Below, one piece after another: positions 31,537-50,275 of a DNA stretch of 64,000 nt. Position 1 is the first letter of the stretch. The number at the start of each line of letters is the position of its first letter. The notes below the pieces were generated by a model that worked only from the letters and a program-made list of their open reading frames with translations, was not told where the DNA came from and made no database searches. The translations under genes and the position numbers were made by a program. This DNA is from Syntrophaceae bacterium (lineage in GTDB: Bacteria > Desulfobacterota > BSN033 > UBA1163): the NCBI GenBank assembly GCA_013388645.1, contig JACAEV010000140.1, positions 9,700 to 73,699 of the forward strand, written 5' to 3'.

Positions 31537-32844
31537 TTAAGTTTCTTTTTTGGGGACACTTCTCCAACGTGACTTCCGGTATCTTATCTTCAATTCTTTG
31601 GGCCACCATGGTAATAAGTCAGAGGGCACTGTTTCTCGAAGAAGTCGCGGAACCCTTTCTCCCTTGGCCTGAGCTTCGATTCCAAATAGGAGGACAGCCT
31701 CTTTGAAATATTTTTTCATCCTCAGCCTCTTGGGAATGATCCCTTTTTGAATCGAATTTCTTATAATGGATTGGGCCATTAAGATCTGGCAAGCCATTTC
31801 CTTTGATCCTCTTGGAAAAGAGAACGGAGTGAGGATTTGATCAATGGCCCACCGGATGGTTTGCATCCGATAAAGATATTTTTCTCTTTTTCCAAGAAAA
31901 GGATGCTCGGGGGTGATCGATCGAAGGAAAGGAGTTAAAAGGAGGGCAAATAGAATGGATTCCGATACTTGACTTCCACCTCTAATCAATTGGTCCACCA
32001 GATCGAAAAGGGATAGAAAAAAATTTTTATTTTTTCCCTTGGAAAGGCTGCGATCCCCAAACGTCCTTTCGAGGTCGGGGAAAAGAGAAAATAGCAGACC
32101 TGTTTGAAGCATGAGTTGGAGGGAAGGCTTTGCCACACCTTCCTTCAGCTCCCGTAGAAACTCATCTCGAAGCCGGGAAGGGGAACATTTTCGTATCTCC
32201 TCCCGATTCCGGAGAATAGCCTGGTAAGTAGGTTCTTCAATAGAGAATCCGGTTCGGGCGGCATGGCGAATGACCCGAATCATTCGGACAGGATCTTGCT
32301 CAAACCTTTCATCCGGACTCCCGATGGTCCGAATGATTTGCCGTTCGAGGTCAACCATTCCACCGACATAGTCGATAATAGAGAAATCTGAGATATTATA
32401 AAAAAGGCCATTAATGGTGATGTCTCGGCGTTGGGCATCCTCTGCCGGGGTGCCAAAACTCTCCTTCCGTACGATCTCTCCTTCTTCTGTCTCGATTTCT
32501 TCAAATTCGGAGCGACTCCTAAAAGTGGAGACCTCTATCACCTTCCCGCCTTTAAAAAATACATGAACCAATCTGAACCTTCGGCCAACGATACGGCTGT
32601 TTTTAAAGAGAGCGTGAATTTCAAGGGGATGAGCATTGGTGACCACATCGAAATCTATTGGGATCTTTCCCAGCAGAAGATCCCGAACACTCCCTCCAAC
32701 GAGATAAGCTAAAAAACCATTCCGATGAAGGCGGTAAAGGACTTTTAAGGCTTCTTCATCAATATTTTTTCTTGAAATCGGATGGTTGGCTCTTGGAATG
32801 ATGAGAGGGGTCATTTGAAGATTTGAATCGCTCCGGGTGTACAA
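31537..32844 (-). CDS. pcnB: Poly(A) polymerase / tRNA nucleotidyltransferase family protein (PcnB-like)
   Basis: LVGGSVRDLLLGKIPIDFDVVTNAHP and RRFRLVHVFF are nucleotidyltransferase head-domain motifs. Confidence 0.7.
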   Translation of the reverse strand: MYTRSDSNLQMTPLIIPRANHPISRKNIDEEALKVLYRLHRNGFLAYLVGGSVRDLLLGKIPIDFDVVTNAHPLEIHALFKNSRIVGRRFRLVHVFFKGGKVIEVSTFRSRSEFEEIETEEGEIVRKESFGTPAEDAQRRDITINGLFYNISDFSIIDYVGGMVDLERQIIRTIGSPDERFEQDPVRMIRVIRHAARTGFSIEEPTYQAILRNREEIRKCSPSRLRDEFLRELKEGVAKPSLQLMLQTGLLFSLFPDLERTFGDRSLSKGKNKNFFLSLFDLVDQLIRGGSQVSESILFALLLTPFLRSITPEHPFLGKREKYLYRMQTIRWAIDQILTPFSFPRGSKEMACQILMAQSIIRNSIQKGIIPKRLRMKKYFKEAVLLFGIEAQAKGERVPRLLRETVPSDLLPWWPKELKIRYRKSRWRSVPKKET

Positions 32845-33188
32845 ACTTTAACGCATCGAGGATTTCCACGACAAAGGTCACAATGAAAAGCCTCTTCCCC
32901 CAAGATAGGCAGAGCATCAAAAGGACAGCATTCTGCCCTTTTTCTATCCCAAATAAATTTCTTTCTCTCTGGAGTCATCTTTAACCTTTCAGCATTAAGA
33001 CACTTCATCTTTTTGCACTGGCGGCATAGAACAGGCGTATGCAGGCTGGTGTCAAGATCATCTTTATCGATATGAATTGCTGATTTCTCTGGATTGATGA
33101 TTCCAAGATGAAAGAGAGAGCAAACCATTTCACAAAGATGGCAGCCACTGCATTTCTCTTTATTCACTTCGATTCTCATTATTTTCAA
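32811..33188 (-). CDS. 4Fe-4S dicluster ferredoxin-domain protein (partner of AOR)
   Basis: CSGCHLCEMVC...CRQC...CDLCRGNPRCVKVCTPGAI Cys motifs. Immediately downstream of the AOR gene on the same strand. Confidence 0.6.
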   Translation of the reverse strand: MKIMRIEVNKEKCSGCHLCEMVCSLFHLGIINPEKSAIHIDKDDLDTSLHTPVLCRQCKKMKCLNAERLKMTPERKKFIWDRKRAECCPFDALPILGEEAFHCDLCRGNPRCVKVCTPGAIQIFK

Positions 33189-33323
33189 GATGATTTATCT
33201 TCAGTCTAAAAGTTATGGGAAGGATGGAGGTTTAGGCAAAAGGTAAGGTCATTGGCCTGAAGAATCTTAAGACTTAACCTCTTGAACTGATGCCAAACAG
33301 GCCTCCTTACCCTTATCCTAACC

Positions 33324-35240
33324 TCACTCCTTCTTGATTAACCCCAATTTTTCCAATTTCTTTCTTTTAGGTATCCCATTTTCATCCCAGCCGTGAAGTC
33401 GATAATATTCATTTAGCATCCCATCAAATTCTTCATGAGAAATGACTTCTCCTTTTGCCGGTCCCTCTGGAATGGGTTCTTCAAAGTACCTTTTCGGTAA
33501 GGTGTCCTCTTTCCGGGTTATCCCATCTTTGACCAGCATCATTCTTTCTAAGGTATAAATCCTTTCTCCAATGATTTTTAACTCCTTTGGGGTAAAGGCC
33601 AAACCGGTCGAGAGAGCGATCAGCTTAGAGAATTCATTATATTGGGGAGCGTGAGGGCTTGAGAAAACAGTGAGGAAGTGGCAAAAACCCAAAGCATCGC
33701 AGAGAGCATTGAAGATCTCATGCCACCATATCATTCTTGCCTTACCCGAGTAAGCAGAGAATTGGTCGCTGACCCGCCCCCCATAGATCTTTTTCAGGAT
33801 TTTCTCGGGAAGGCCGAGGATATCCAAAGAGGGGCGACTTCTCATGTGGCAGGCTCCTCGCGTAGAGGTCGCCATCCCCAAGGCAAAACTTTTGGGAAGT
33901 CTCTCATCGGTCATTTCAATTGGAAAATTTTTAATGTCAAGAAGGTAATCTTTAGAAACTTCTCCGAAAATCCTCTTAGCAAAAGCGCCTTCTGCCAACC
34001 TATTTCCGAACCCTTTCCTCTGGGCAATCTGATGGATAAGTTTAAGAATCGTTTTCCCATCTCCCCAATTCAATGGGATTTCTGTCATTTTCTGATCGAT
34101 GATCCCCCGTTGAAAGAGTTCCATCACCCAGGCCAAATAGGAGCCGGTTGAAATGGTGTCAAGGCCATAGCGATTGCAGAGCTCGGTGGCAGAGAGGATA
34201 TTCTGAAGATTAAAATTTCCCAACTTCGATCCTAATGAACCAATGGAGGCATATTCAGGCCCCTCGCCCTTTGTCCCTTTATACTGTCCTTCTTCGATAG
34301 AGAATCGGTGCCGGCAATGAGCAGGGCAACCAAAACAGGAAAGCATTCCTGTGGAGAATGGTTCCAATGCCTCCGCTTCCAAGGCATACCCCTGTTCGCC
34401 AATCGTTGTCAATTGATTATTGCGGATGCTCAAAAAACCCATGGCATTTGCATATTGGAAGAGAAGAGGCGTTCCATATCTCCCAAGGGCTTGTACCCAT
34501 TTTGAATTCATCAGTTTCTTTAAGGTTCTTAAATAATATTTGAGATAATTTTTGGGGTCGGAAAGGGTGATGTCCAGGTTTCCCCTCACCGCCACTGCCT
34601 TCAAGTTCTTCGAACCCATGACCGCACCCATCCCTGTTCTTCCAGCAGAATTTTTCATGCCAGTGCGGATGGCAGAGAATCTGACCAAATTTTCTCCAGC
34701 AGAGCCGATACAGGCGACCTGGATTTTTTCATCTCCCAACTCTTGACGAATGATTCTTTGCGTGTCAACCGTATCAAGGCCCCAGAGTTTTTGTGCATCT
34801 CGAATTTCCACATTTCGATTTTTAATAAAGAGATAGATCGGTTTTCGACTTCTCCCTTTGATCAGCAGGTGACTTAAGCCTGCTTTGACCAATTCCGCTC
34901 CAAAATCTCCTCCCATATTCGAATCACCAAGATGGCCTGACTCTGGTGATTTGGCCGTGATGTTGATTCGGGATCCGAAGCCAAGGATCCCGGTGAGAAG
35001 ACCCGCTCCGAAGATCAGGGGGTTTTCTGGGGAAAGTGGATCAAGATCAGGTGAATAGGATTGAGAGAGGAGATACATATTGATTCCCCTTCCCCCCAAG
35101 AATTTATTTCTCAGATCCAGAGGGATAGGGAGGATCTCTACCGAATCTTTATTCAGATGAAGAAGGGCTATTTTTCTTCCAAGAACCATTCTACCGGGAT
35201 TATAACAGAATTGGCCTGAAAAGGCGTAATTTCTATCCAT
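33324..35240 (-). CDS. Tungsten-containing aldehyde:ferredoxin oxidoreductase (AOR family)
   Basis: N-terminal AOR_N domain (LGGRGINMYLL, GAGLLTG) and a ~600-aa length with conserved AOR C-terminal motifs. Confidence 0.85.
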   Translation of the reverse strand: MDRNYAFSGQFCYNPGRMVLGRKIALLHLNKDSVEILPIPLDLRNKFLGGRGINMYLLSQSYSPDLDPLSPENPLIFGAGLLTGILGFGSRINITAKSPESGHLGDSNMGGDFGAELVKAGLSHLLIKGRSRKPIYLFIKNRNVEIRDAQKLWGLDTVDTQRIIRQELGDEKIQVACIGSAGENLVRFSAIRTGMKNSAGRTGMGAVMGSKNLKAVAVRGNLDITLSDPKNYLKYYLRTLKKLMNSKWVQALGRYGTPLLFQYANAMGFLSIRNNQLTTIGEQGYALEAEALEPFSTGMLSCFGCPAHCRHRFSIEEGQYKGTKGEGPEYASIGSLGSKLGNFNLQNILSATELCNRYGLDTISTGSYLAWVMELFQRGIIDQKMTEIPLNWGDGKTILKLIHQIAQRKGFGNRLAEGAFAKRIFGEVSKDYLLDIKNFPIEMTDERLPKSFALGMATSTRGACHMRSRPSLDILGLPEKILKKIYGGRVSDQFSAYSGKARMIWWHEIFNALCDALGFCHFLTVFSSPHAPQYNEFSKLIALSTGLAFTPKELKIIGERIYTLERMMLVKDGITRKEDTLPKRYFEEPIPEGPAKGEVISHEEFDGMLNEYYRLHGWDENGIPKRKKLEKLGLIKKE

Positions 35241-35355
35241 TAACGTTTTATCTACTAATAGGCGTTCAGGTGGCTCTTGACAAATGAGTGAAATCGGAAA
35301 AGAATATTATTATAAATGTTGAAGTTTCAAAATTTTTAAACGAGCGGGGGTCAAA

Positions 35356-35550
35356 ATGAAAATACAGGAAGTAAGATCAAAGGCGAAGGCCTTGGGATTG
35401 AAAAGCACCTTTGGGCTATCGAAGGCAGAACTGATTCGAAGGGTTCAAAAGGCTGAAGGGAATTTTGATTGTTTCGGAACGGCCAAGGGCTATTGCGACC
35501 AATTTCAATGTTGTTTCAGAGAGGATTGTTTTAAATTTATCAAGAGTTAA
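35356..35550 (+). CDS. Small hypothetical protein with Rho-N/SAP-like helix pair and C-terminal Cys cluster (CFGTAKGYCDQFQCCFREDC)
   Basis: 64-aa ORF from the track with no confident family. Confidence 0.3.
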   Translation: MKIQEVRSKAKALGLKSTFGLSKAELIRRVQKAEGNFDCFGTAKGYCDQFQCCFREDCFKFIKS

Positions 35551-35621
35551 TTTTTTTGGCTGTGCCCGAAGGTTAATGCCTTTTTGCCTTGCAAAGTTAT
35601 TCAACGAAAGGAGGATTCGTT

Positions 35622-36200
35622 ATGGCAAAACAAATTCAATGGGAAACTTCACTCACGACGGCTAAGGGTAAGGCAAAGAAAGAGAGAAAACTGATTTTGA
35701 TGGACTTTTATAACAATCTCTGAATTGGGTGCCAACAGCTGGCAGCTGTTACTTATCCCGATTCGAATGTTTGTGCATCGGTAGAAAATAATTTCATCCC
35801 ACTTCAAATCGATTTCAACAAGAACAAAGCCCTGGTAAAACGATTTAGCGTTAAATGGACTCCCACTGTTGCCATTTTAGATTCGGAGGGCGAGGAGCAC
35901 CATCGTTTTGTCGGATATCTTCCTCCGGAGGATTTCATTGCACAGATCCTTCTCGGCAAGGGGAAGGTTGAATTCAATCTTGATCGCTTCGAACAATCCA
36001 TACAGTGTTTCCTGGAAGTTCTCGTTCGCTATTCCAAAACAGATGCCGCGCCTGAGGCACAATACTATCTCGGTGTTGCCAAGTATAAAGCAACCCATGA
36101 TCCCAAACAATTGAAATTGGGATTGGAGGTGCTGCAAAGGGATTATCCGAATAGCGAGTGGACTAAGAAGGCCCAGGTATACGGACTGATTCCTGGGTAG
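35622..36200 (+). CDS. Thioredoxin-fold selenoprotein with UxxC redox motif (in-frame TGA 35721..35723 read as selenocysteine)
   Basis: RBS AAAGGAGG precedes ATG 35622. The ORF reaches TGA at codon 34, at the exact position of the first Cys of a thioredoxin-like CxxC motif (DFYNNL-U-IGCQQ). The same frame then runs 159 codons without any Met to TAG 36198..36200. A stem-loop AACAGC/UGGCA/GCUGUU begins 10 nt after the TGA. Confidence 0.6.
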
Positions 36201-36222
36201 ATTTTATTTTGCAGACGCCATT

Positions 36223-37041
36223 TTAATGGATAGAAAATCGCCAGGCACAGTACCAATCTGGACGGGGAGGATCAGGAGGGCATCCCAAACATTCTGTCTG
36301 AATCCGAGAATCGATGGTCGCTGCAAAAGTTCGGTACTCAATGATGCCGATGGATTTGCAAGGATAATCTTCTAAGCCTTTGAGCCTGCGGGAAGCCTGG
36401 ACCCGACAGTCGATCATGCGGAAGACAAAGGAGTCCGATTTTTCTTCCACGAAATCCTGTTTATTGATACGGGCGTATAACCGAAATTGAAGTGCTGTTT
36501 TGAGAGCATCCAATCCACCCTGTTGTGGCAAGTCCAATAGGGTTTTGATATGGTAAGCTTCATAAGGAGAAAATCGGGTCCAGCAGGTATCATTACATCG
36601 TTTTGCATCAAAAATTCCAAACTTTTTTTCAACAGTCTGGAACCATACTCCGTCATTGGCCAACCAATTGAGGGCAAGGGAATCTAAGAGCTCATTCAAC
36701 TGATTTTCGTCCATCCGATATAAAACCGCTGGTATTCCTTGTTGTAGTTCAATGTTGAGAAGTTTAGCAACCCGTTTCAATTGAATTGCTAAACTGGTTG
36801 CCCCAACCTCTTTTTCCATCTCAAGGGCAACTTCCATTCCATATTGGTACTCCACTTCCTTGAGCCAATAACCATAATGAACCAGAGTACGCCAAAAGGC
36901 ATCTAAAATCCAACGAATCAGAAATTCCTTTTCAAGTTTTGTCGATAATTCCATTCTCTTTTTATTCTCCTCCATTTCCTCTCTCTTTTTCTGTTCGCCA
37001 AGGTCATTCAGAATGATAAAGCAGAGGTGACACCATGGCAA
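36223..37041 (-). CDS. Hypothetical protein with C-terminal Cys-rich region
   Basis: Track ORF; last gene of a minus-strand operon. Start uncertain (overlaps the upstream gene by 34 nt). Confidence 0.35.
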   Translation of the reverse strand: MPWCHLCFIILNDLGEQKKREEMEENKKRMELSTKLEKEFLIRWILDAFWRTLVHYGYWLKEVEYQYGMEVALEMEKEVGATSLAIQLKRVAKLLNIELQQGIPAVLYRMDENQLNELLDSLALNWLANDGVWFQTVEKKFGIFDAKRCNDTCWTRFSPYEAYHIKTLLDLPQQGGLDALKTALQFRLYARINKQDFVEEKSDSFVFRMIDCRVQASRRLKGLEDYPCKSIGIIEYRTFAATIDSRIQTECLGCPPDPPRPDWYCAWRFSIH

Positions 37042-37670
37042 CGGGAAGCCGTGCTGATCAATATTAGCCGGTTTGACTTTTTCTTTTTTTTAATATCCTC
37101 CAACAAGTCCAACAGCGCTTTGGTTCGAAATCCTCCCACTCCTGGGCCGAGTTGTTCACTTCGGATTACCATTGATTCAAAAGGCCCTCTCAAATCTTTT
37201 AAAATCTGATAAAGAGGTTTTTCACGCCTTTTCCCGGTTGCCGTGCAATATCGAGAAGGTTCCGGGCAATCTTCAGAACATAAGAAATCAGCAAGGCTGG
37301 TATAGAGATCGCCTGTTTTGCCTATCATGGGGTTGGGCAATCCAGGAAGGGCAGGGACTTTAATCCTTTTGGCCCCGATAGGTTTCAGCTGGGATAAAAT
37401 GAATTCGAAAGCAAAGTGAAGGGGGAGGGCAGCGATAATATAGTCGGCCTTTAAACCTTTTGATAAAAATTGATTTAGATAGAGTATCCCGTCACAGACT
37501 GCAGTTTGAATTGGAAGCCGAGAGACTTTTTGGAGTGCCTTTTTATTTTTATCAACAACGATGATTCTTGAACGAGCATTTTTTTGAGAGAGTTTTTCTG
37601 CAGCCCGGCCTCCAAAACGGCCACATCCGATGATGAGGAATGAAGGTGAACGATTAGAATAAGACATCAA
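37008..37670 (-). CDS. Rossmann-fold NAD(P)-binding protein (TrkA-N-like GxGxxG) with C-terminal CxxxCx6C cluster
   Basis: FLIIGCGRFGGRAAEKL dinucleotide-binding fold and FLCSEDCPEPSRYC Cys motif. Function unknown. Confidence 0.4.
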   Translation of the reverse strand: MMSYSNRSPSFLIIGCGRFGGRAAEKLSQKNARSRIIVVDKNKKALQKVSRLPIQTAVCDGILYLNQFLSKGLKADYIIAALPLHFAFEFILSQLKPIGAKRIKVPALPGLPNPMIGKTGDLYTSLADFLCSEDCPEPSRYCTATGKRREKPLYQILKDLRGPFESMVIRSEQLGPGVGGFRTKALLDLLEDIKKKKKSNRLILISTASRCHGVTSALSF

Positions 37671-37709
37671 AATACTTTTTTATCAATAAAAAATAATCAG
37701 ATTTTTGAA

Positions 37710-38753
37710 CTACCTCTGTGAAAAGGTGTCCCATGCGGACTTCTTTCCAGCGGAAACCATCGCACGTATATTCTCAGGGGGCGCATTGACAGGGACCGTG
37801 CAACCTGAGGATAAGATGTAATTCCCCTTCGTGCCTGCAACCGATATCATCAGACGCAAACTTTCTTTTTCCACTTTCTCTGGATTTCCGAATACTAATA
37901 CATCGGTTGGATCAAGATTGCCCATCAGACCAATGTCCTCCCCCAGAATCTTTCGGGCTTCATCCATATTAACTTTACTATCCAAACTTAAACAGTCCAC
38001 CCCCGTCCCCATCATTGTTTCCAGTCGGTCAGTGGTATCACCGCATATGTGCATAATGATTTTAGCTCCCAACTTCTTAAGAGCGGAGACAACCTTAGTT
38101 GTATAGGGTTGGGCGAAAGTCATCCATATTTTAGAGGAGATCACATCACCGGATGACATGGGATCTGAAATGAAAAGGACATCCGCCCCGGCATGAAGGA
38201 GAGCTGTTCCCCAAACGATTTGAGTGGATACACAAAGTTCTAATAGGTCTTTTACAGATTGGGGACTTTTATAAACGTCTGTTAAAATTTTATCAGGACT
38301 TCGAAGCATGGAGGCATGTCGAAAAGGAGCTTGAAGATAACCTAAAACCGGGATCTCCTTTCCGACTTTTCCCTTAAGCAGATATATCCCTTCTAATACA
38401 ATTGGCATACGGCCATCCTTGTATGGGTCAGGGATTTTAAGCTTTGGAAGATCTTTCTTATAGTCCTTTATTGCGAACTCGATGACGGAGGGGAACGCAT
38501 CTTCCGGGAACTTTAGCTTTGATCCCATAGCCTCAGACTCACAGTGAATGCCTCCAAGGTCTCGCACCATGTCATAATCAAATTCCTGAACGCAGAGGTA
38601 TTGAGAATGGGCATACTTGCTTGCATCAAGAATAGCCTCATAAGCTTTAAATCCAGCTTGACGCACACACCACTCCCTCACGAGAGGAAATACTGGAATT
38701 CTATCAGGTTTCTGTCCATCCAAAACAGACATAATTCTTTCGTAAGAATTCAT
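37710..38753 (-). CDS. Uroporphyrinogen decarboxylase (URO-D) superfamily protein, MtaA/MtbA-like methyltransferase type
   Basis: DRIPVFPLVREWCV N-terminus and overall URO-D fold motifs. Confidence 0.7.
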   Translation of the reverse strand: MNSYERIMSVLDGQKPDRIPVFPLVREWCVRQAGFKAYEAILDASKYAHSQYLCVQEFDYDMVRDLGGIHCESEAMGSKLKFPEDAFPSVIEFAIKDYKKDLPKLKIPDPYKDGRMPIVLEGIYLLKGKVGKEIPVLGYLQAPFRHASMLRSPDKILTDVYKSPQSVKDLLELCVSTQIVWGTALLHAGADVLFISDPMSSGDVISSKIWMTFAQPYTTKVVSALKKLGAKIIMHICGDTTDRLETMMGTGVDCLSLDSKVNMDEARKILGEDIGLMGNLDPTDVLVFGNPEKVEKESLRLMISVAGTKGNYILSSGCTVPVNAPPENIRAMVSAGKKSAWDTFSQR

Positions 38754-38769
38754 CTCTTCTTTTTGCTCC

Positions 38770-39284
38770 TCAATCGTCTATTTTCCTACTTTCATTCCGG
38801 AGTCTTAAAATAATCTCTGAAGCGATCTTGGCAGCAATTCCACAAACTTCTGGACATCCCTTTCGACTATGGCCACCCATACTGTGAAAGTTCTCTCTTT
38901 CCTCCGGGATATGCATCCGATAAACTTTTCCAAATCGGATTCGATGAATTTCTTGACACAAGGTATGACCTATTTTCTCCTTGAATTTTGCGAACATTTC
39001 CATGGCGGGCTCCATCGCCTTCTGATATTGCTCCTTGTCCTCAAGTTTTTCGCGCCCAACGACTGTACCGATTGCCATCAATGAACCCAATAAAGCACCA
39101 CAGGTCTCGCCCTGGCGAGCAACGCCACCTGCGAGGGTGCTTGCGGATTTAAAAACCTCTTTATTCCCAATTTGTAATTTCTCTTGCAAAGCTGCAAGAA
39201 CGGATTGGCTTCACCCAAAATAATCCATATCATATTGAAGGGCCAATTTAAAAATTTCTTCGGCTAGATGGTTTTCTTTTTCCA
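38770..39284 (-). CDS. C_GCAxxG_C_C-family putative redox protein, selenocysteine-containing variant (in-frame TGA at 39210..39212, minus strand)
   Basis: Minus-strand ATG at 39284 with RBS GAGGTGA gives MEKENHLAEEIFKLALQYDMDYFG-TGA-SQSVLAAL... The TGA replaces the conserved first Cys, and ETCGALLG plus the C-terminal GCPEVCG complete the family signature. A hairpin UUCUUGCA/GCUU/UGCAAGAA starts 10 nt after the TGA. Frame continuity across a T-homopolymer near 39178..39182 follows the ORF track, which implies one more T than I count in the printed text. Confidence 0.5.
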
Positions 39285-39437
39285 TTCATCACCTCGGCTG
39301 GGGCGGAGTATAAAACCCTTGACTTCATTAATATTTGTTCCCAACTTCGTACTATTCGTAATTAAAAAAAAAGATATTGTCAAGAAGCCAAATTAAAATC
39401 AAAAAAAGCGCTTGACTTTTTTAGAGGATGAATTAAA

Positions 39438-39457
39438 CTGGTCTGAAGTTAGACCAG
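39438..39457. promoter_or_regulatory. FadR/GntR-type operator-like inverted repeat CTGGTCT-N6-AGACCAG overlapping a TTGACT-N16-TAAACT promoter
   Basis: Read from the sequence ~45 nt upstream of the GntR/FadR-family gene. It contains the TGGT...ACCA half-sites characteristic of FadR-subfamily operators. Confidence 0.45.
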
Positions 39458-39500
39458 ATTTTAAAAAGCATTTAAATTGATAAGGACAAAAATTAGGAAG

Positions 39501-40304
39501 ATGTATTCCTTTAAAGCGATCAAAAAAGATTCATTATCTCAGCGGATAGAAAAAGATATCAAAAACGCAATCGCCTCTCGAATTTATAAACCTCTTGAAA
39601 AATTGCCTTCCGAAAGGGATCTTATGGGTCAATTCAATGTCAGTCGTACCACCATCCGGGAGGCTTTAATGAGTTTACAGAGCAGCGGTTTGATTTTTGT
39701 AAAAAGAGGAATGAATGCAGGCGCCTATGTAGCTGAGATCAATCCGGATCCAATCACAGAGAATTTTCAAAACCTGATTAAATTTGGAAAGATTAACTTT
39801 GTTCATCTTACAGAGGCACGGTTATATATCGAACCCGAAGCTGCCAGAATTGCAGCCATTTGCAGATCAGAGAAAGATCTTGCGACACTTAACGAGCTCC
39901 TGGCAAAAGCCGAGGCCAGTAATCAGACTTCAGTCAAAGAGGCGCGCTTGATCAATGTCCGTTTCCATGTGGAAGTTGCAAAGGTTACTCAAAATCCGAT
40001 TATCATTTTTATCTCAGAGTCCGTCACACAAGTCTTTTCGGCAGGTCTGATTGAGCGGACGAAACTCAGTAAAGCGGATGTGTTGAAAAATATTGATGCC
40101 CATCGATATATCTTGGATTCGATCATTCGAAAGGATGAAAAAGAAGCCTATGAAAGAGCCAAGAGCCATATTTTAGGGGTTTACCATACCTATCGCCGGA
40201 TTATCCCTAACGTTCCCCGAAGCGATATCAGGGGACTCGAAAACCGGTTGGGGGATTTTAAAAAGGACGGAAAAGGCAAATCCAGGGTGACTTTCAGGGG
40301 ATGA
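39501..40304 (+). CDS. GntR/FadR-family transcriptional regulator
   Basis: LPSERDLMGQFNVSRTTIREALMSLQSSGLIFVKRGMNAGAYVA winged HTH and an FCD-like C-terminal domain. ATG 39501 is in frame with the TTG-initiated track ORF. Confidence 0.75.
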   Translation: MYSFKAIKKDSLSQRIEKDIKNAIASRIYKPLEKLPSERDLMGQFNVSRTTIREALMSLQSSGLIFVKRGMNAGAYVAEINPDPITENFQNLIKFGKINFVHLTEARLYIEPEAARIAAICRSEKDLATLNELLAKAEASNQTSVKEARLINVRFHVEVAKVTQNPIIIFISESVTQVFSAGLIERTKLSKADVLKNIDAHRYILDSIIRKDEKEAYERAKSHILGVYHTYRRIIPNVPRSDIRGLENRLGDFKKDGKGKSRVTFRG

Positions 40305-40494
40305 GGATCATTTGCCAGAGCCGATTGGATATCGAGATGGATATAATTTAATCCTGAGAAAATCGGGAGGGCGAAAGGATCGGAATGGAAAGGCAGTCTC
40401 CATTCAGAACGGGAAGGTGGGAGGGAGAGAAAGAAGAATGTGGAAAAAGAAAAAAGTTGGAATTAATTTTTTAACCAAGAAAGGAGGAGAGACC

Positions 40495-41481
40495 ATGATG
40501 AAAAGAGTTTCATTGCTTGAGTTGGCGGGGGTTGTGATTCTCATTACGACTTTTGTTCTATTTGGGGGGACAGAGATTTCATGGGCTCAAAAGTCCGTTA
40601 GAATTTCTATCGCCACAGGTGGAACAGGCGGGGTCTGGTATCCCTATGGGGGAGCCATGGCCAATGTGATTTCGAAATACCTTTCTGAGGTTGAAGCAAC
40701 GGCCGAAGTCACCGCCGCTTCCGTGGACAATGCGAGGTTATTGGGAGCTGGTAAGGTTGATGTTGCTTTCATATTCGGAGACGTTGGTTACGATGCGTTT
40801 TTGGGGAAGGGGGTCTTTAAAGAAAAAATACCCACCATGCGTTGCATCGCTTCCCTATACCCCTCCGTGACTCATATCGTAACCCGGGAGGGGACGGGAA
40901 TCGAAAAAGTTGCGGACCTAAAGGGGAAAAGAATTTCGACAGGGGCTCCTGGAAGCGCAACGGAGGTCATCGCCAATAGAATCCTGGAGGCTTATGGAGT
41001 GGATCCTGACCGAGACATAAAAAAGGATCGACTGAGTGTGGCGGAGTCTGTGGGGGCATTAAAAGATAGAAAAGTGGACGCTTTTTTCTGGACCGGAGGG
41101 ATTCCAACCTCTGCGATCATGGACATCTGTGCCACTCCTGGCATCAAGGCAAAGCTATTAGAGAACGCTGAGGCGCTTCCGAAACTGATATCCAAATTCG
41201 GTCCGATTTATTACAAGAGCATATGCCCTAAGAATACCTATCCGGGAATTGACTATGATGTGGCCACCGTGACAGCAGGCAATTTTCTATCCTGTCTCGA
41301 AAAGGTGGATGAGAAGCTGGTCTATAGTATTATCAAGACACTTTTTGATCACCGGGACGAATTAATTAAAACCCATAAAGTCGCTCTGCAGCTCAAATTA
41401 GAGGATGCAGTGGAAGGATCTCCTTATCCATACCACCCGGGGGCCATCAAGTACTATAAAGAAAAAGGGGTTTGGAAATGA
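40495..41481 (+). CDS. TAXI-family TRAP transporter solute receptor
   Basis: Signal peptide MMKRVSLLELAGVVILITTFVLFGG and ISIATGGTGGVWYPYGGAMANVIS, typical of TAXI-type periplasmic binding proteins. RBS AAGGAGGAG precedes ATG 40495. Confidence 0.7.
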   Translation: MMKRVSLLELAGVVILITTFVLFGGTEISWAQKSVRISIATGGTGGVWYPYGGAMANVISKYLSEVEATAEVTAASVDNARLLGAGKVDVAFIFGDVGYDAFLGKGVFKEKIPTMRCIASLYPSVTHIVTREGTGIEKVADLKGKRISTGAPGSATEVIANRILEAYGVDPDRDIKKDRLSVAESVGALKDRKVDAFFWTGGIPTSAIMDICATPGIKAKLLENAEALPKLISKFGPIYYKSICPKNTYPGIDYDVATVTAGNFLSCLEKVDEKLVYSIIKTLFDHRDELIKTHKVALQLKLEDAVEGSPYPYHPGAIKYYKEKGVWK

Positions 41482-41497
41482 GGGGGAGGGGGGAAGG

Positions 41498-42859
41498 ATG
41501 GAAGAGATATTGGCAAAGATCGTTCATCACCTCACGAAGACCCAATTCGATGATCTTCCTGCCACTGTTATTGATCATACAAAGAAATTTATTGTTGATT
41601 CATTTGGTGTGGCAATTGCTGGAGGATCCGCTCCTGGATGCAAAGAGGTAGCGGACCTTGTTCGATCATGGGGAGGGAAACCAGAGGCCACCCTCTTGGG
41701 ATATGAGGGGAAAGTTCCTTCTCCTTCAGCCGCTTTTGCCAATAGTGTGATGATGCATGCGTTGGATTTCGATGATACCTTGGATGAATCAGCGCTACAT
41801 GCCCATGTGACTGTTTTGCCATCTGCGTTAGCTGTGGCAGAGGCCATGGGTGGAGTCTCGGGGAAAGATCTCATCACTGCGGTGACTTTAGGCGTAGACT
41901 TAGTTTGTCGGTTGGGATTAGCTACACGGAGGCCATTATCGTGGGTCCGTACAGCGACCTGTGGATCCTTCGGAGCGGCTGCTGCCTCAGGAAAAATATT
42001 AAGATTGGATAAAGAAGAAATGTGGAACGCTCTTGGGGTGGTTTATAGTCAAGCTTCTGGGAACGCACAATGCCTTATTGATGGAGGACTCGTCAAACGG
42101 ATGCAACCTGGTTTTTCTGCAAAAGCTGGGGTCTTTTCTGTTTTTTTAGCAAAGAAGGGAATTACAGGAGCCAAAGATCTCTTTGAAGGGCCATATGGAT
42201 TTTTTAATCTCTATGAGGGAGGCGATTATGACCGAGAGAGCATATTGACAGGATTTGGAAAACAATTTGAAGGGGTGAAATTGAGCATTAAGCCTTATCC
42301 CTCCTGTCGCATGACCCATGCCTCCATCGATGCGGCCATTGCGGTAAGAGAAAATTATAAGATCAACCCATCCGAGATTGAAGAGGTGGTCGTCCGCGTT
42401 TCCCCAATGGTGTTTAATATGGTTGGATCTCCATTTGTCATTCGTGAAAATCCCCAGGTGGATGCTCAATTCAGCATCCCCTATAATGTGGCAGTGGGAA
42501 TGATCAAAGGAGAGGTCTTCTTAAAAGATTTCGACGAGCGCTACATCAGGGATCCTCAAGTTCTCGAATTATCCAGGAAAATAAGAGTGGAGATTGATCC
42601 AGGTTTACCGGAAAGAGATATGATGTCTGCGGATCTCCAGGTGAAGACCAAGAATAACATTTTCTATAAGAAAGTCGATAAGGTAAAAGGAAATCCTTTA
42701 AATCCTATGGATATGAATGAATGTGTCAAAAAATTTATGAAATGTATTGAGTATAGTGAAAATCCCAATATGGAGAAAAAGGCCAAGGAGATCTTGGACG
42801 CTTTAATCGATCTCGACCAGTTGAGGGATATTAGTGTTCTGATGCGGTTATTTGTATAA
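41498..42859 (+). CDS. MmgE/PrpD-family protein (2-methylcitrate dehydratase / cis-aconitate decarboxylase superfamily)
   Basis: The N-terminal region (ILAKIVHHLTKTQFDDLPATVIDHTKKFIVDSFGVAIAG) and ~450-aa length are consistent with the PrpD fold. Confidence 0.7.
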   Translation: MEEILAKIVHHLTKTQFDDLPATVIDHTKKFIVDSFGVAIAGGSAPGCKEVADLVRSWGGKPEATLLGYEGKVPSPSAAFANSVMMHALDFDDTLDESALHAHVTVLPSALAVAEAMGGVSGKDLITAVTLGVDLVCRLGLATRRPLSWVRTATCGSFGAAAASGKILRLDKEEMWNALGVVYSQASGNAQCLIDGGLVKRMQPGFSAKAGVFSVFLAKKGITGAKDLFEGPYGFFNLYEGGDYDRESILTGFGKQFEGVKLSIKPYPSCRMTHASIDAAIAVRENYKINPSEIEEVVVRVSPMVFNMVGSPFVIRENPQVDAQFSIPYNVAVGMIKGEVFLKDFDERYIRDPQVLELSRKIRVEIDPGLPERDMMSADLQVKTKNNIFYKKVDKVKGNPLNPMDMNECVKKFMKCIEYSENPNMEKKAKEILDALIDLDQLRDISVLMRLFV

Positions 42860-42968
42860 AGATCTCAAATTAAATGCAGAAAGAATAGAGGTGGAGAACT
42901 TTTGGGCCTCCGTTGAAGAGGCCCTCTTCATTTTTTAAGGAAAATTTATTAAAGGGAAGGGATCGAAT

Positions 42969-44414
42969 GTGACTCGTAAGGCATCTCCTGAAGTAACGAA
43001 ATTGGTGGATGAATTGGCAACGATTGTAACTAAGAAATATGTGTCAGCTCATATTTTTGAGAGGATAAAAAGTTCAATCGATACCTTTCCTTATGAAGCA
43101 GAGAAAGAGAATCTGCCCTATGCGATTGTGATGCCAAAATCGAAGAACGAGGTTAGTGAGATTTTGAAGTATGCCAATCGAAGAGAAATCCCTGTATTTA
43201 TCCGAGGGTCAGGGACTTCTTTTACCGGTGCTTCACGGTACCATATTCCAGGCATCGTCATCAACACACATCGAATGAATGACATAGAAGTCTTTGAAGA
43301 CTTTGGTTTTTTTGAATGCGGACCAGGATGTATTTGTGAATCAGTAGCGAAGGAGATCGAAACGCGAGGTTACTTCCTTCCATTTGCCCCTGGCAGTCGA
43401 TTAATTGCAAGCATGGGTGGATTAATTGCCAATAATACCAGCGCTCATATCGTCGATGCCAGTGTTGGAAAGCCTGGGGATTATGTGCTTGGCCTCGAAG
43501 TGGTGCTTCCAAATGGGGAGATCATAGAGACGGGAACGAAAGGGTTACGAAGACCAGCGGGCACGGACTTGACCAAGTGGTTTGTAGGAGGGGATGGACT
43601 TTTAGGTGTGGTGACCAGGATCCGGATGAGACTTGCCCCCGCATTTGAAAGGGCCTATGGGATTGCGATTTACCAAGATCTCAAATCCCTCGCAAAGGGT
43701 GTTCAGAGAATATATAGGGAGAGGCGGCCCCTTCCTTTATTTATGGAATTTATGGAGAAGGAGACCGCTAAAATTGGATATAAGATTAAGGGGCTTGAAA
43801 TTCCAAAAGGATCGGTCATTCTGTTTGTGAGCACAGGAAATTCAAAAGAGGAGGCCTCTCAGAAGGCCGAACAGATATTGAGTTCGCTACGTGCTGAGAA
43901 TCCGATGGAGGCCCAACTCATTAAAGATATCGAGTTATGGGAAAAACTTTGGTCATCTCGTGAAGTGATTGGGTCTTACCTCATGCAAGAAAGCGGAAAT
44001 CAATGGTCTTCTGCCGAAGTGGTCTCCAATCTCATGGAACTTGAAGCGTGTATGGAGGATGCGTCCCATTTCAATCAAGATTTACCGGTGCTCAGCCAAT
44101 TGACTCTCTATCTGTTTGGACACATTGGAGGTTTGACGATGCACCCTGGTGTGATCATCCCTAAAGAATGGGATAATGAGAAAAAGAAGAGGGCGGTTGA
44201 TGAGAAATTTCAGAGAGAGGCTGAATTAAATCTAAAGTATCATACCTGTGGCGGGGAGTGGGGCCAATTTGCGAAACGGGCGCCCTTTTTTATCATGCGG
44301 TATGGAGAAGAGAGTTATGAATTGATGAAGAAAATTAAGAAAACTTTTGATCCCAATAATATACTCAATCCGGGAGTTTTGGAGGGGGACTTCAACAATA
44401 AGGAGAATGGATGA
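42969..44414 (+). CDS. FAD-linked oxidase (GlcD / D-lactate dehydrogenase-like FAD-binding subunit)
   Basis: FAD_binding_4 motifs VFIRGSGTSFTGAS and GGDGLLGVVTRIRMRL. GTG start. Confidence 0.75.
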   Translation: MTRKASPEVTKLVDELATIVTKKYVSAHIFERIKSSIDTFPYEAEKENLPYAIVMPKSKNEVSEILKYANRREIPVFIRGSGTSFTGASRYHIPGIVINTHRMNDIEVFEDFGFFECGPGCICESVAKEIETRGYFLPFAPGSRLIASMGGLIANNTSAHIVDASVGKPGDYVLGLEVVLPNGEIIETGTKGLRRPAGTDLTKWFVGGDGLLGVVTRIRMRLAPAFERAYGIAIYQDLKSLAKGVQRIYRERRPLPLFMEFMEKETAKIGYKIKGLEIPKGSVILFVSTGNSKEEASQKAEQILSSLRAENPMEAQLIKDIELWEKLWSSREVIGSYLMQESGNQWSSAEVVSNLMELEACMEDASHFNQDLPVLSQLTLYLFGHIGGLTMHPGVIIPKEWDNEKKKRAVDEKFQREAELNLKYHTCGGEWGQFAKRAPFFIMRYGEESYELMKKIKKTFDPNNILNPGVLEGDFNNKENG

Positions 44415-45631
44415 ATCAAAGGAAGGTGGCCAGAGATCTTCACAGCATAGATGAAGAAGAATATATTGAGGATTTAAAGGGAATTATCCTTGATGCCGCA
44501 AAGAGGTGCAGGAACTGCAATTATTGTTTTACGATTTGTCCTTTGTTCCATTCGACACGCGGGTTTATGAGTCAAACTCCTTCTGGCATTATGCAATCGA
44601 TCAACTATGCCTTAAAATGGGACGTCTTTAAGGGAGAAGATCAAGAAATTTTACGAGATCTTTTGTATCTTTGTACGACATGTAACGGATGTGTTCTACG
44701 ATGCAAATCCAAAGCAACGGGGCTCCCCGTTTTAGATGCAATCGAGGCGGGAAGAAAATTATTGAGGGAGATGATGATTGGCCCTCTCCCACAACAGAGA
44801 AAACCTCTAAAAGATATCTATTTATATGGCAATCCCTATGGGGAAAAGCCTGAGAGAAGAGTCGATTGGACGAAGGGATTGAAGGTGAAAATAATCCCTC
44901 CCGAGAGAGCAGAGGTTTTATTTTATGTGGGATGTACCACTGCCTACGAACCTAGCCTGCATCTGATAGGAAAAAGTCTGGTCAGACTGCTTCAATCCCT
45001 TCATGTCGATTTTGGAATTTTAAACGAAGAGGTTTGCTGTGGGGAACCTGCCAGAAGGATGGGGGATGAGGGTCTATTTCAAGAAATGATGAACCGAAAC
45101 CTCGATCAATTTAAGAGTTATGGCATAAAAACGATCGTATCCATCTCACCCCATTGTTTTAATACTTTCTTGAATGAATATCCAACCATCCAGGAGGAGA
45201 TAAAAATTCAACATTACACAGAGTTCTTGGCAGAGGCATTCAAAGGGAAGAAGCCATTGTTCAAGAAAGAAATCTCCTCTGTCATTACCTATCATGACCC
45301 CTGTTACCTTGGTAAACATAATCAGATTTTCAACGCCCCGAGGGAACTTTTGCAGATGATCCCTGGGGTGAAATTGGTTGAGATGAAGATGACAAGGGAA
45401 GAGAGTCTCTGTTGTGGGGGCGGAGGGGGAAGAATGTTTGCCGAGGTGGAGGAGGAACGAAGGTTATCCGATATGCGAATCACTCAAGCTCTGGAGGCCG
45501 GGGCAAATATCATTGCCACCGCGTGTCCTTGGTGTTACAAAATGCTCCAAAATTCGATTCAGGATTCTAATCTCGAGGATAAGATAAGGGCTAAAGATAT
45601 CTCAATCATTTTAAGTGAAGCCTTGAATTGA
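44411..45631 (+). CDS. Fe-S oxidoreductase with two 4Fe-4S motifs and two CCG domains (GlcF/LutA/HdrD-like)
   Basis: CRNCNYCFTICP and CTTCNGCVLRC ferredoxin motifs. CCGEPA and CCGGGGG cysteine-rich CCG domains. Overlaps the FAD oxidase gene by 4 nt. Confidence 0.75.
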   Translation: MNQRKVARDLHSIDEEEYIEDLKGIILDAAKRCRNCNYCFTICPLFHSTRGFMSQTPSGIMQSINYALKWDVFKGEDQEILRDLLYLCTTCNGCVLRCKSKATGLPVLDAIEAGRKLLREMMIGPLPQQRKPLKDIYLYGNPYGEKPERRVDWTKGLKVKIIPPERAEVLFYVGCTTAYEPSLHLIGKSLVRLLQSLHVDFGILNEEVCCGEPARRMGDEGLFQEMMNRNLDQFKSYGIKTIVSISPHCFNTFLNEYPTIQEEIKIQHYTEFLAEAFKGKKPLFKKEISSVITYHDPCYLGKHNQIFNAPRELLQMIPGVKLVEMKMTREESLCCGGGGGRMFAEVEEERRLSDMRITQALEAGANIIATACPWCYKMLQNSIQDSNLEDKIRAKDISIILSEALN

Positions 45632-45688: not shown

Positions 45689-46099
45689 TTAATGGTCTTT
45701 TGGGAGTTCGCACAGTTCAATGAGGACGCCGCTTGAAGATTTTGGGTGCACAAAAGCAACTTTGGTGCCATGAGCCCCGGGTCGGGGTTTTTGGTCGATC
45801 AACGTCGCACCTTTCTCAAGATAGGCTTTCACCTCTTTTTCTACATCATCCACTTCAAAACAGATGTGATGAATCCCCTGTCCCTTCGTCTCTAAAAATT
45901 TAACAAGAGGTGAATCTGGCTCCGCAGGCTGAACCAATTCAATATTCGACTCCCCGATCTTAAAAAAACCCACCCTCGTTTTCTGGGCAGTGACCATCTC
46001 CACCCCGGAGAGGGTAAGACCCATCACATTTTGATAGAACTTGGCTGCTTCTTCGATGTTATTTACTGCAATAGCAATATGGTTAATCTTTTTTAGCAT
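45689..46099 (-). CDS. Methylmalonyl-CoA epimerase (VOC/glyoxalase-fold)
   Basis: HIAIAVNNIEEAAKFY...GIHHICFEV metal-binding VOC motifs. ~135-aa length and position in the mutase cluster. Confidence 0.65.
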   Translation of the reverse strand: MLKKINHIAIAVNNIEEAAKFYQNVMGLTLSGVEMVTAQKTRVGFFKIGESNIELVQPAEPDSPLVKFLETKGQGIHHICFEVDDVEKEVKAYLEKGATLIDQKPRPGAHGTKVAFVHPKSSSGVLIELCELPKDH

Positions 46100-46124
46100 T
46101 CTATCATCCTCCTTATTAGTCTAT

Positions 46125-46235
46125 ACGCATAGAGTGAATAGCCGTAGGATGATGGAATGTTGGAATAATGGAATAATGAAAAAACAGCCTTTTATTAAAA
46201 CCCATTATTCCAATATTCCACTATTCCAATTGTAC
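46125..46235. repeat. Intergenic palindromic element family B, second copy
   Basis: ggatgatggaatgttggaataatggaataatg ... cattattccaatattccactattccaat, an imperfect hairpin related to 24085..24175. Confidence 0.6.
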
Positions 46236-46619
46236 ATTTCTATGAATGTATTTAATAATATCTTCGGTGGAGGCGCCGGGTTGAAAGATCTCCCGAATCC
46301 CAGCCTTTTTTAGTCCCGGGATATCATCCACGGGTATAATCCCGCCCCCAAAAACAAGGATATCTTCAGCCTTTTTATCTCTAAGAATCTGAACCACTTT
46401 CGGGAAAAGATTGTTGTGGGCACCGGAGAGGCTGGAGAGACCGACAACATCCACATCTTCTTGAATCGCTGCGTTGGCAATCTGTTCAGGGGTTTGCCGT
46501 ATGCCTGTATAGATCACCTCCATCCCTGCATCTCGAAGAGCTCGTGCAATGACTTTTGCCCCTCGATCATGCCCATCCAATCCTGGTTTTGCGATCAGTA
46601 CTCGGATCTTTCGGGCCAT
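46221..46619 (-). CDS. Methylmalonyl-CoA mutase small subunit, cobalamin-binding domain (stand-alone)
   Basis: [35 protein letters not shown]12-binding DxHxxG motif. RBS GGAGGAG precedes ATG 46619. Confidence 0.8.
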
Positions 46620-46771
46620 TTCTCTCCTCCGTCGAAAGTTCGGAGACAATCATTTTGTAGTTTCTTGGTCTGATAGTCTCACAATCTTTAACTATACGAC
46701 TAATAGACCAATTGACTATGTGACTATGTCACTAATGACTCCGAACTCCCAATTCCGAACTCTGAACTGTT

Positions 46772-48427: not shown

Positions 48428-48538
48428 AATTCGCTCCCAGAAAAAGGGGACAGGCTACTTTTTAAAGAACTTACTTCGGGAAAGACTGCATATACTCTTA
48501 TTTCTCATGAAAAAGTAGCCTGTCCCCTTTTTTTATTC

Positions 48539-50113: not shown

Positions 50114-50140
50114 GAACGAATTTCCCTCCTACAAAAAATA

Positions 50141-50275
50141 AACTCTAAATCTAAAACGCTAAATCCTAAATAAACTCAAAACTCAAAATCGAAATATCGA
50201 AACACCCCTTTTTGGGTTTAAAGTTTTGGACTTTGGGTTTGTTTAGAGTTTAGGGTTTCGAGTTTAGTGTTTCTT
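50141..50275. repeat. Intergenic palindromic element family A, second copy (core 50238..50273)
   Basis: Left arm is (CTAAAYN)n and right arm is gtttgtttagagtttagggtttcgagtttagtgttt. The right arm overlaps the meaB stop codon. Confidence 0.7.

Follow-up and report, generated by a model that had tools for sequence, protein, structure and literature searches.

The gene row and its setting

Four co-oriented open reading frames (ORFs), here called G1 to G4, occupy positions 36223-39285 on the minus strand of a 64,000-nucleotide stretch of DNA from a Syntrophaceae bacterium (assembly GCA_013388645.1, contig JACAEV010000140.1), hereafter the window. All four were confirmed as present. G1 is a predicted selenoprotein, G2 a homologue of corrinoid-dependent methyltransferases, G3 and G4 are members of two families that occur next to genes of B12 metabolism in several lineages. 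Two other gene groups bear on the interpretation of the row, a cassette next to it that is transcribed in the opposite direction and, past the cassette, an operon for methylmalonyl-CoA mutase (MCM). The origin in a Syntrophaceae metagenome-assembled genome agrees with NCBI entries 100% identical to two proteins of the window.

38770-39285, minus strand: G1, C-GCAxxG-C-C family selenoprotein of 171 aa, predicted selenocysteine (Sec25) at the first conserved Cys of the family (PF09719, TIGR01909)
37710-38753, minus strand: G2, URO-D-family MtaA-type zinc methyltransferase homologue of 347 aa (PF01208, E 1e-77)
37008-37670, minus strand: G3, AF_1314-family protein of 220 aa, with an NAD-type Rossmann N-terminus and a C-terminal four-Cys domain (TrkA_N, PF27252)
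36223-36975, minus strand: G4, DUF6125 protein of about 243-250 aa; fold like that of Bet3, V4R and H-NOX, C-terminal sheet bearing five invariant Cys
45689-51217, minus strand: MCM operon, encoding MeaB, carboxyltransferase, MCM large subunit, B12-binding subunit and epimerase (Pfam)
39477-45631, plus strand: divergent cassette, encoding a GntR/FCD regulator, a TAXI solute-binding protein, MmgE/PrpD, a FAD-linked oxidase (GlcD-like) and a CCG/4Fe-4S protein (GlcF-like) (Pfam)

The spacers measure 16 nt between G1 and G2, 39-42 nt between G2 and G3, and about 32 nt between G3 and G4, and no convincing terminator was found in any of them. The tight packing described in a first-pass annotation of this DNA is borne out; the upstream end of the row, given there as 39284, is shifted by one base, the ATG of G1 being at 39285. 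The same annotation had remarked that no corrinoid protein is encoded next to G2. This holds for the whole window, where the search for corrinoid protein genes returned none except the small (B12-binding) subunit of MCM.

Distribution of the four genes in related genomes

The row had been read as a single module, in which G1 and G3 feed electrons to G2, and conservation of the four genes as a neighbourhood had been set beforehand as the test. The four genes are not conserved together. The complete row is found in the window and in loci L001 and L003 only, and sister genomes carry partial combinations. In L010 (Syntrophaceae UBA2208; MCM 96% and G4 85% identical to the window proteins) the order is carboxyltransferase-MCM-B12 subunit-epimerase-G3-G4; G1, G2 and the cassette are absent, and the end of the epimerase gene and the predicted beginning of G3 have 4 nt in common. 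In L004 the epimerase gene is followed by G3 after a 9-nt gap, beside a type I restriction-modification insertion. L094 (G2 83% identical) carries epimerase-cassette-G1-G2; genes for a regulator and an ABC transporter come next, and G3 and G4 are absent over 8 kb downstream. L093 and L096 carry G1-G2-G3, and lack G4. Compared with L010, the window has about 8 kb of extra DNA between the epimerase gene (45689) and G3 (37670), corresponding to the plus-strand cassette plus G1-G2. The MCM operon is the ancestral upstream neighbour of G3-G4.

The same separation is seen on a broader scale. An alignment scan of one genome per GTDB species detected DUF6125 genes in no fewer than 590 species, of which the 80 best loci were retained. 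Among these best 80 of at least 590, G3 resides beside G4 in three (L010, L011 and L012), which are those closest to the window, an orthologue of G1 or G2 in none, and 77 of the 80 have neither G1, G2 nor G3 within 10 kb. G2 orthologues were surveyed in 83 loci, 80 from a metagenome scan (44-83% identity) and three from look-ups. G1 accompanies G2 in four of the 83, all at least 81% identical to G2, and G3 is present in two of those four. Near the orthologues 44-60% identical to G2, neither G1, G3 nor G4 is ever found.

The single-module view fails, since the row is broken up in related genomes: G1-G2 segregate with the divergent cassette, and G3, with or without G4, with the MCM operon. The row is a lineage-specific juxtaposition, less special than first described. 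As a dedicated system, in which G1 and G3 make up an electron-delivery or reductive-activation chain for G2, and G4 might replace the missing corrinoid protein as a new cofactor carrier, the single module would account for the co-orientation and close packing of the genes with no terminator between them, for the lack of a corrinoid protein gene in 64 kb, and for the identical order in L001 and L003. It could also draw on the different MtaA-like gene located two genes upstream of G3-G4 in L011, and on the fold of G4, common to haem-binding H-NOX and V4R domains. It is nonetheless improbable, given the restriction of the full set to the window, L001 and L003, and the occurrence in sister genomes of G3-G4 alone, G3 alone, G1-G2 alone and G1-G2-G3. 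Moreover, the 44-60% identical G2 orthologues use ordinary MtaC-like corrinoid proteins, some of them with RACo, and most DUF6125 genes (best 80 of at least 590 loci) have no URO-D gene nearby.

On balance, and with moderate confidence, we read the row as a composite operon of two evolutionarily separable modules, G1-G2 and G3-G4, both tied to corrinoid (B12) chemistry, with G3 and G4 as B12 accessory proteins. Gene order, family assignments, conserved residues and neighbourhood patterns are observed; methyl transfer by G2 in this organism and the functions proposed below for G1, G3 and G4 are inferred, those of G3 and G4 from gene context in particular.

Two of the loci closest to the window feature additional genes. 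L011 (7164-11343), alone among the 80 DUF6125 loci, holds a distant MtaA-like URO-D gene (26% identical to G2), a gene for a 359-aa arginase/agmatinase-like protein, G3, G4, and a second G3 copy. Start and stop codons overlap in this array; the second G3 copy was detected by tblastn only, and may be degraded. L011 provides an independent instance of G3-G4 with an MtaA-like neighbour. In L012 (1190-5278), a RACo-like corrinoid activase gene is followed by G3, a 147-aa GIY-YIG-like ORF, and G4.

The G1-G2 pair and the divergent cassette

G1 and G2 would form one module with the divergent cassette, the two transcription units having a palindromic, operator-like region in common. The features found within and upstream of G1 are the following.

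39438-39457, either strand: palindrome CTGGTCT-N6-AGACCAG in the GntR/G1 intergenic region, likely GntR/FCD operator (conservation)
39211-39213, minus strand: in-frame UGA (predicted Sec codon), codon 25 of G1, the same codon in six sequences
39181-39200, minus strand: SECIS (selenocysteine insertion sequence)-like hairpin of 8 bp that begins 10 nt past the UGA and has the loop GCUU (fold and conservation)

The assignment of G2 to the MtaA-type URO-D enzymes, made in the first-pass annotation, is correct at the family level. The best match in the PDB is MtaA (4ay7, E 3e-29). Residues H235-x-C237 and C318 of G2 align to the zinc ligands of 4ay7 (motifs LHICGN and PGCG), and are invariant in 30 orthologues. 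G2 resembles the methylcobamide:thiol methyltransferases MtaA, MtbA and MtsA in the URO-D fold and in the H-x-C...C ligands. Several G2-orthologue loci with an adjacent corrinoid protein also hold a second URO-D paralogue, a further likeness to these systems. G2 differs from them in being a bacterial (Syntrophaceae) and not a methanogen protein, in scoring below curated cutoffs (far below those of the MtaA and MtbA equivalogs), and in lacking a cluster-encoded corrinoid protein in the 64-kb window. It also differs in being set among genes for GntR, TAXI/TRAP, MmgE/PrpD and GlcD/GlcF-like proteins, a setting in which the substrate is more likely to be an organic acid than coenzyme M. From family context, G2 is most likely a corrinoid-dependent methyltransferase, and would be expected to transfer methyl groups in this organism too.

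The neighbourhoods of the 83 G2 orthologues vary in composition over a limited set of families. DctP/DctM genes are found in 14-15 loci, usually upstream and on the same strand, MmgE/PrpD in 12, TAXI in 10, GntR/FCD in 8, and FAD oxidase/CCG genes in 6-7; a second URO-D paralogue is a recurrent partner. An MtaC-like corrinoid protein of 206-260 aa, with the DxHxxG motif, is encoded directly next to G2 in about 20 of the 83 (e.g. L098, L121, L141, L152). A RACo-type activase gene is carried by 7 loci, mostly ones that also have the corrinoid protein. L098 carries on one strand G2 (60% identity), a corrinoid protein, a URO-D paralogue, a creatininase-like gene, MmgE/PrpD (69%), FAD oxidase (77%) and CCG (70%). 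In L094 a corrinoid protein and a URO-D paralogue are found 6 kb downstream of G2. G2 is functionally tied to the divergent GntR/TAXI/MmgE-PrpD/GlcDF cassette, because orthologue loci carry the same families, L098 in the first place. No paper linking a corrinoid protein with PrpD and TRAP was found in the literature.

The family name of G2 invites a different assignment. Like true uroporphyrinogen decarboxylase, G2 might decarboxylate without a cofactor, its substrate being an organic acid that bears a carboxymethyl group and enters the cell through TAXI/TRAP. The Pfam family is indeed URO-D, the MtaA/CmuA cutoff is not reached, and many orthologue loci combine transporters and MmgE/PrpD with no adjacent corrinoid protein. 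The three MtaA zinc ligands are invariant, however, the score against HemE (TIGR01464) is 104.5 bits, far below the cutoff of 302.95, and corrinoid protein and RACo genes are found in about 20 and in 7 orthologue loci, respectively. Decarboxylation is thus a very unlikely activity for G2. As a methyltransferase, G2 would most likely carry methyl groups from a corrinoid protein to a small substrate or in the reverse direction, within the breakdown of an organic acid taken up from outside. This acid may be a methylated one, its product entering MmgE/PrpD and GlcD/GlcF-type steps. In this lineage the corrinoid protein would have to come from elsewhere in the genome.

A second recurrent architecture of the G2 clade was observed in a subgroup of 53-60% identity among L090-L172 (e.g. 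L101, L103, L111, L113, L164). DctPQM genes lie upstream of G2, a creatininase-family gene on the opposite strand downstream, usually with a carboxyltransferase gene, and no corrinoid protein gene is found nearby. In L092 the G2 orthologue is preceded by a gene for 141 aa, which was considered as a diverged G1 and proved not to be one.

In an alignment of six intergenic regions, the arms of the palindrome at 39438-39457 hardly vary. The palindrome is exact in L093, L095 and L096, and one arm base is changed in each of L001 and L094; a conserved TTGACA block lies near it. The palindrome occurs as a single copy in the window. It is its conservation, and not its rarity, that gives it weight, because at least one match was found in 13 of 100 shuffles. 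The palindrome fits co-regulation of the two transcription units by the GntR/FCD protein, and is likely its operator. In L001 (about 6170-6360) an insert of about 190 nt, rich in G+C and containing hairpin-forming repeats (e.g. CCCCGCAGCAGAGCTGCGGGG), separates the conserved promoter block from G1. Neither the window nor any of the four remaining relatives has this insert, which may represent a mobile element of small size or a REP (repetitive extragenic palindromic)-like one.

G1 was scored against profiles with Cys placed at the TGA. It matches PF09719 (88.5 bits, cutoff 27) and TIGR01909, the 'C-GCAxxG-C-C family (seleno)protein' (66.9 bits, cutoff 47.4). The TGA aligns with the first conserved Cys of the family, the other Cys positions being C62 (in GETCGALLG), C110 and C143/C147, in addition to U25. 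The earlier description of G1 as a predicted Sec-containing redox-type protein named the right family. In six G1 sequences (window, L001, L093-L096) the TGA, and 24-29 codons upstream of it, are conserved at the protein level. A start at a downstream TTG, which would give a 139-aa protein and make the TGA a true stop, was rejected in view of this conservation of the TGA and of the codons ahead of it, and of the match in position between the TGA and the first Cys of the family. The hairpin past the UGA is part of the minimum-free-energy fold, and the sequence GUUCUUGCAGCUYUGCARGAR is kept in all six, the few changes preserving pairing as G-U. Folding of a 67-nt piece containing the hairpin is not significant against shuffles (z = -0.27), and the case for the hairpin is accordingly one of conservation. 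A scan of the 64-kb window for tRNA and tmRNA genes found none, hence no tRNA-Sec there.

The C-GCAxxG-C-C family is already on the list of predicted prokaryotic selenoproteins (PMC9312934). G1 is to be placed, by its sequence, in this known and functionally uncharacterised family, as a member with a predicted Sec. It features about 140 residues after an N-terminal extension, the CGAxxG motif and distal Cys residues, and has Sec in place of the first Cys, as do the listed selenoprotein members. It differs from the rest of the family in being paired with a URO-D methyltransferase, an association limited to this narrow clade.

G3, G4 and the genes of B12 metabolism

Profile searches assign the two proteins left uncharacterised in the first-pass annotation to the AF_1314 family (G3) and to DUF6125 (G4, PF19620). 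The N-terminal half of G3, with its GxGxxG motif, is a Rossmann domain of the TrkA_N type (PF02254, 31.8 bits). PF27252 (AF_1314_C) is recorded for the 99% identical protein P0001 and for nearly all G3 homologues, and the assignment of G3 to it is taken from these homologue records, not from a score of its own. Clustered at 50% identity, the family comprises 452 groups. The first-pass annotation was right in describing a Cys cluster joined to a dinucleotide-binding domain; the cluster, C131-x3-C135-x6-C142, is located in the middle of the protein and not at its end, near which a fourth invariant Cys resides, in Cys211-His212. GxGxxG, D40, H85, C131, C135, C142 and C211-H212 are invariant over 124 representatives of the family. 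At residue 209 (window 37044-37046), within the motif T-x-C-x-C-H, 90% of the 124 representatives have Cys, and G3 and its close relatives Ser; the metal site may differ in this clade.

The AlphaFold2 (AF2) model of G3 has a mean confidence (pLDDT, predicted local distance difference test) of 87.8. Solved relatives match the first 90-120 residues, the Rossmann half resembling TrkA/KTN, saccharopine dehydrogenase and SDR-type NAD domains; for the Cys-bearing C-terminal domain the fold comparison found no solved relative. TrkA_N was the only domain detected when longer G3-family proteins were scanned for fusions. P0365, considered as an epimerase-G3 fusion, was rejected, having no Pfam support.

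G3 recalls the corrinoid reductase PduS and the reductive activators RACo/RamA in joining a dinucleotide-binding domain and a Cys cluster, and in adjoining genes for B12 enzymes, CobA and RACo, the genomic niche of such proteins. No similarity in sequence or fold was detected beyond the generic dinucleotide fold, and the RACo Pfam families (Raco_middle, RACo_C_ter) do not match G3. PduS and RACo proteins are about 450-640 residues long, G3 220. RACo/RamA combine a ferredoxin domain with an ASKHA ATPase, and G3 has neither an ASKHA ATPase domain nor a recognisable flavin site; PduS binds FMN, two 4Fe-4S clusters and NADH (PMC2982820). RACo often co-occurs with G3 rather than being replaced by it, and is encoded by a separate neighbouring gene in L012 and L174. 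As judged from these comparisons, G3 is a member of neither family.

G4 matches PF19620 with 246.3 bits (E 1.9e-73, cutoff 27). Its identity to homologues in 80 species ranges over 52-85%, and that among DUF6125 proteins exceeds 50% across phyla. It is Cys-rich, as noted before; the length of 272 aa given then results from the most upstream TTG (37041), and homologues as well as the NCBI call (243 aa) favour a shorter protein, starting at ATG 36975 or 36954. A PDB sequence search found no meaningful match. The fold is that of V4R domains, DmpR-PoxR sensors, Bet3 and H-NOX, the likeness being confined to the fold (sequence identity 3-14%). V4R/Bet3/H-NOX folds are ligand-binding modules, some of which bind tetrapyrroles or hydrophobic ligands, and V4R-type sensors carry a zinc site in the region of the C-terminal sheet. 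Unlike V4R and DmpR-PoxR sensors, G4 stands alone, with no DNA-binding or signalling domain, DUF6125 being its one Pfam match.

A B12 gene is found nearby in 6 of 8 independent contexts of G3. G3 is associated with the MCM operon (L004, L010), with G2 (window, L001, L093, L096), with the second MtaA-like gene and the arginase-like gene (L011), and with the RACo-like gene (L012). A 47% identical protein is encoded in the array MtaB-CobW-RACo-DUF1638-PNPOx-G3-CobW (L174), and the gene of a 42% identical one lies 20 nt upstream of a CobA/CobO/BtuR adenosyltransferase gene (L173). G4 relatives show comparable associations. CbiB, CobD (a threonine-phosphate decarboxylase-like aminotransferase) and DUF6125 genes lie in a row in three species (L006/L015, L016, L017); the row starts about 2.1 kb upstream of the DUF6125 gene, which comes third, 8-65 nt after CobD. 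DUF6125 is followed by BtuF/FecCD genes in two species, has MCM adjacent or nearby in three, and RACo in one. Genes for carboxyltransferase and for a 5S/biotin transcarboxylase subunit of the methylmalonyl-CoA pathway are its neighbours in 11-14 Desulfobacterales loci. In ten DUF6125 loci outside Desulfobacterales, immediate neighbours have no theme in common beyond one IcmF-like mutase. B12 is the sole denominator common to G3 and G4 contexts, and a B12-accessory role is ranked first for this reason.

Two other explanations of these contexts were weighed. G3 and G4 may serve the methylmalonyl-CoA (propionate) pathway itself, for instance in the handling of CoA esters or in regulation, without relation to the B12 cofactor. 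The position of G3 directly after the epimerase gene in L010 and L004 and the Desulfobacterales loci just mentioned are compatible with this, and the Rossmann-like domain, with its weak match to the succinyl-CoA ligase alpha subunit, could bind CoA. Left unexplained are the location of G3 beside CobA (L173), MtaB/RACo/CobW (L174) and RACo (L012), and that of DUF6125 in CbiB-CobD operons or beside BtuF-type transporters; as B12 alone is common to all these contexts, a role confined to the propionate pathway seems doubtful. Alternatively, G3 and G4 may be unrelated housekeeping proteins, and synteny noise may have placed them side by side and next to B12 genes. The great diversity of DUF6125 neighbourhoods outside Desulfobacterota, the two of eight G3 contexts without a B12 gene, and the lack of background statistics for the counts of B12 neighbours all speak for it. 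B12-related genes make up about 1-1.5% of the genes in such genomes by a rough, uncomputed estimate. At this frequency, B12-specific genes would not be expected by chance within one to three genes in 6 of 8 G3 contexts and in at least 9 DUF6125 loci, differing in gene order and lineage, and chance adjacency is unlikely.

The G3-G4 module would thus be, ancestrally, the tail of the MCM operon, and its products most likely accessory proteins keeping corrinoid cofactors usable. G3 may provide redox power or deliver electrons, through a predicted Cys4 metal or Fe-S site. G4 may bind a hydrophobic or tetrapyrrole-type ligand, by virtue of its V4R/Bet3/H-NOX-like fold and Cys-rich metal site. The redox role envisaged earlier for G3 is plausible in altered form, as a B12-related accessory or redox function of a general B12 helper, not of a dedicated partner of G1 and G2.

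Several observations weigh against the reading of the row as a composite of two corrinoid-related modules. G1-G4 are probably still one transcript in the window, and their products may cooperate here. G2 scores 223.6 bits against TIGR01463 (MtaA/CmuA), below the cutoff of 235.4. Two G3 contexts (L175, L176) have no B12 genes nearby, and neither have many DUF6125 loci, e.g. in Bacteroidales, Zixibacteria and Oscillospiraceae; the association of G3 and G4 with B12 genes was scored post hoc, with no matched background of random loci. No cobalamin riboswitch, nor any other Rfam family, was found at the gathering threshold in the window, L001, L006, L007 and L009. A flavin is normally needed by reductases passing electrons from NAD(H) one at a time, and G3 has no recognisable site for it. 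The Cys loop of G3 is poorly modelled (pLDDT 54-78), and the model cannot tell Fe-S from Zn. In the literature, DUF6125 and the protein AF_1314 are mentioned in no paper, and no biochemistry of G1-G4 is reported; a match to 'AF1314' was discarded, being an unrelated atrial-fibrillation study.

The gap of about 980 nt between G4 and the next gene on the minus strand (35241-36222) has no Rfam match at the gathering threshold. No long ORF is found besides a small gene at 35356-35550 on the plus strand, which lies close behind G4 and runs antisense to the row. The product, of 64 aa, is rich in Lys in its N-terminal half and in Cys in its C-terminal half (CFGTAKGYCDQFQCCFREDC), and has no Pfam match. 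Since the ORF is conserved in L001, L093, L096 and L010 (84-88% identity), it is taken as a real small gene. Beyond the 64-aa ORF, and before the gene for poly(A)/CCA polymerase, come genes for an aldehyde:ferredoxin oxidoreductase and a small 4Fe-4S ferredoxin (32811-35240, minus strand). These two are missing at the same position in L001 and L010, and can for this reason be regarded as a second lineage-specific insertion in the neighbourhood.

Knowledge of the reduction, loading and repair of B12 in strict anaerobes is incomplete; RACo accounts for methyltransferases, and PduS, CobR and flavodoxin for a few lineages. AF_1314-family and DUF6125 proteins may, as a tentative proposal well short of the probable, be hitherto overlooked accessory factors that are widespread in the corrinoid metabolism of anaerobes. 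G3, for instance, could act as a small Fe-S reductase of corrinoids linked to NAD, feeding adenosyltransferases and the reactivation of methyltransferases, and G4 as a V4R/H-NOX-like corrinoid carrier or chaperone, loading or rescuing B12 enzymes such as MCM. The two families are concrete, expressible candidates for the handling of the B12 cofactor. The G2 clade links corrinoid methyl transfer to TRAP/TAXI transport and to an MmgE/PrpD and GlcD/GlcF-like cassette. This suggests that Desulfobacterota process a methylated organic acid anaerobically by a route not yet described.

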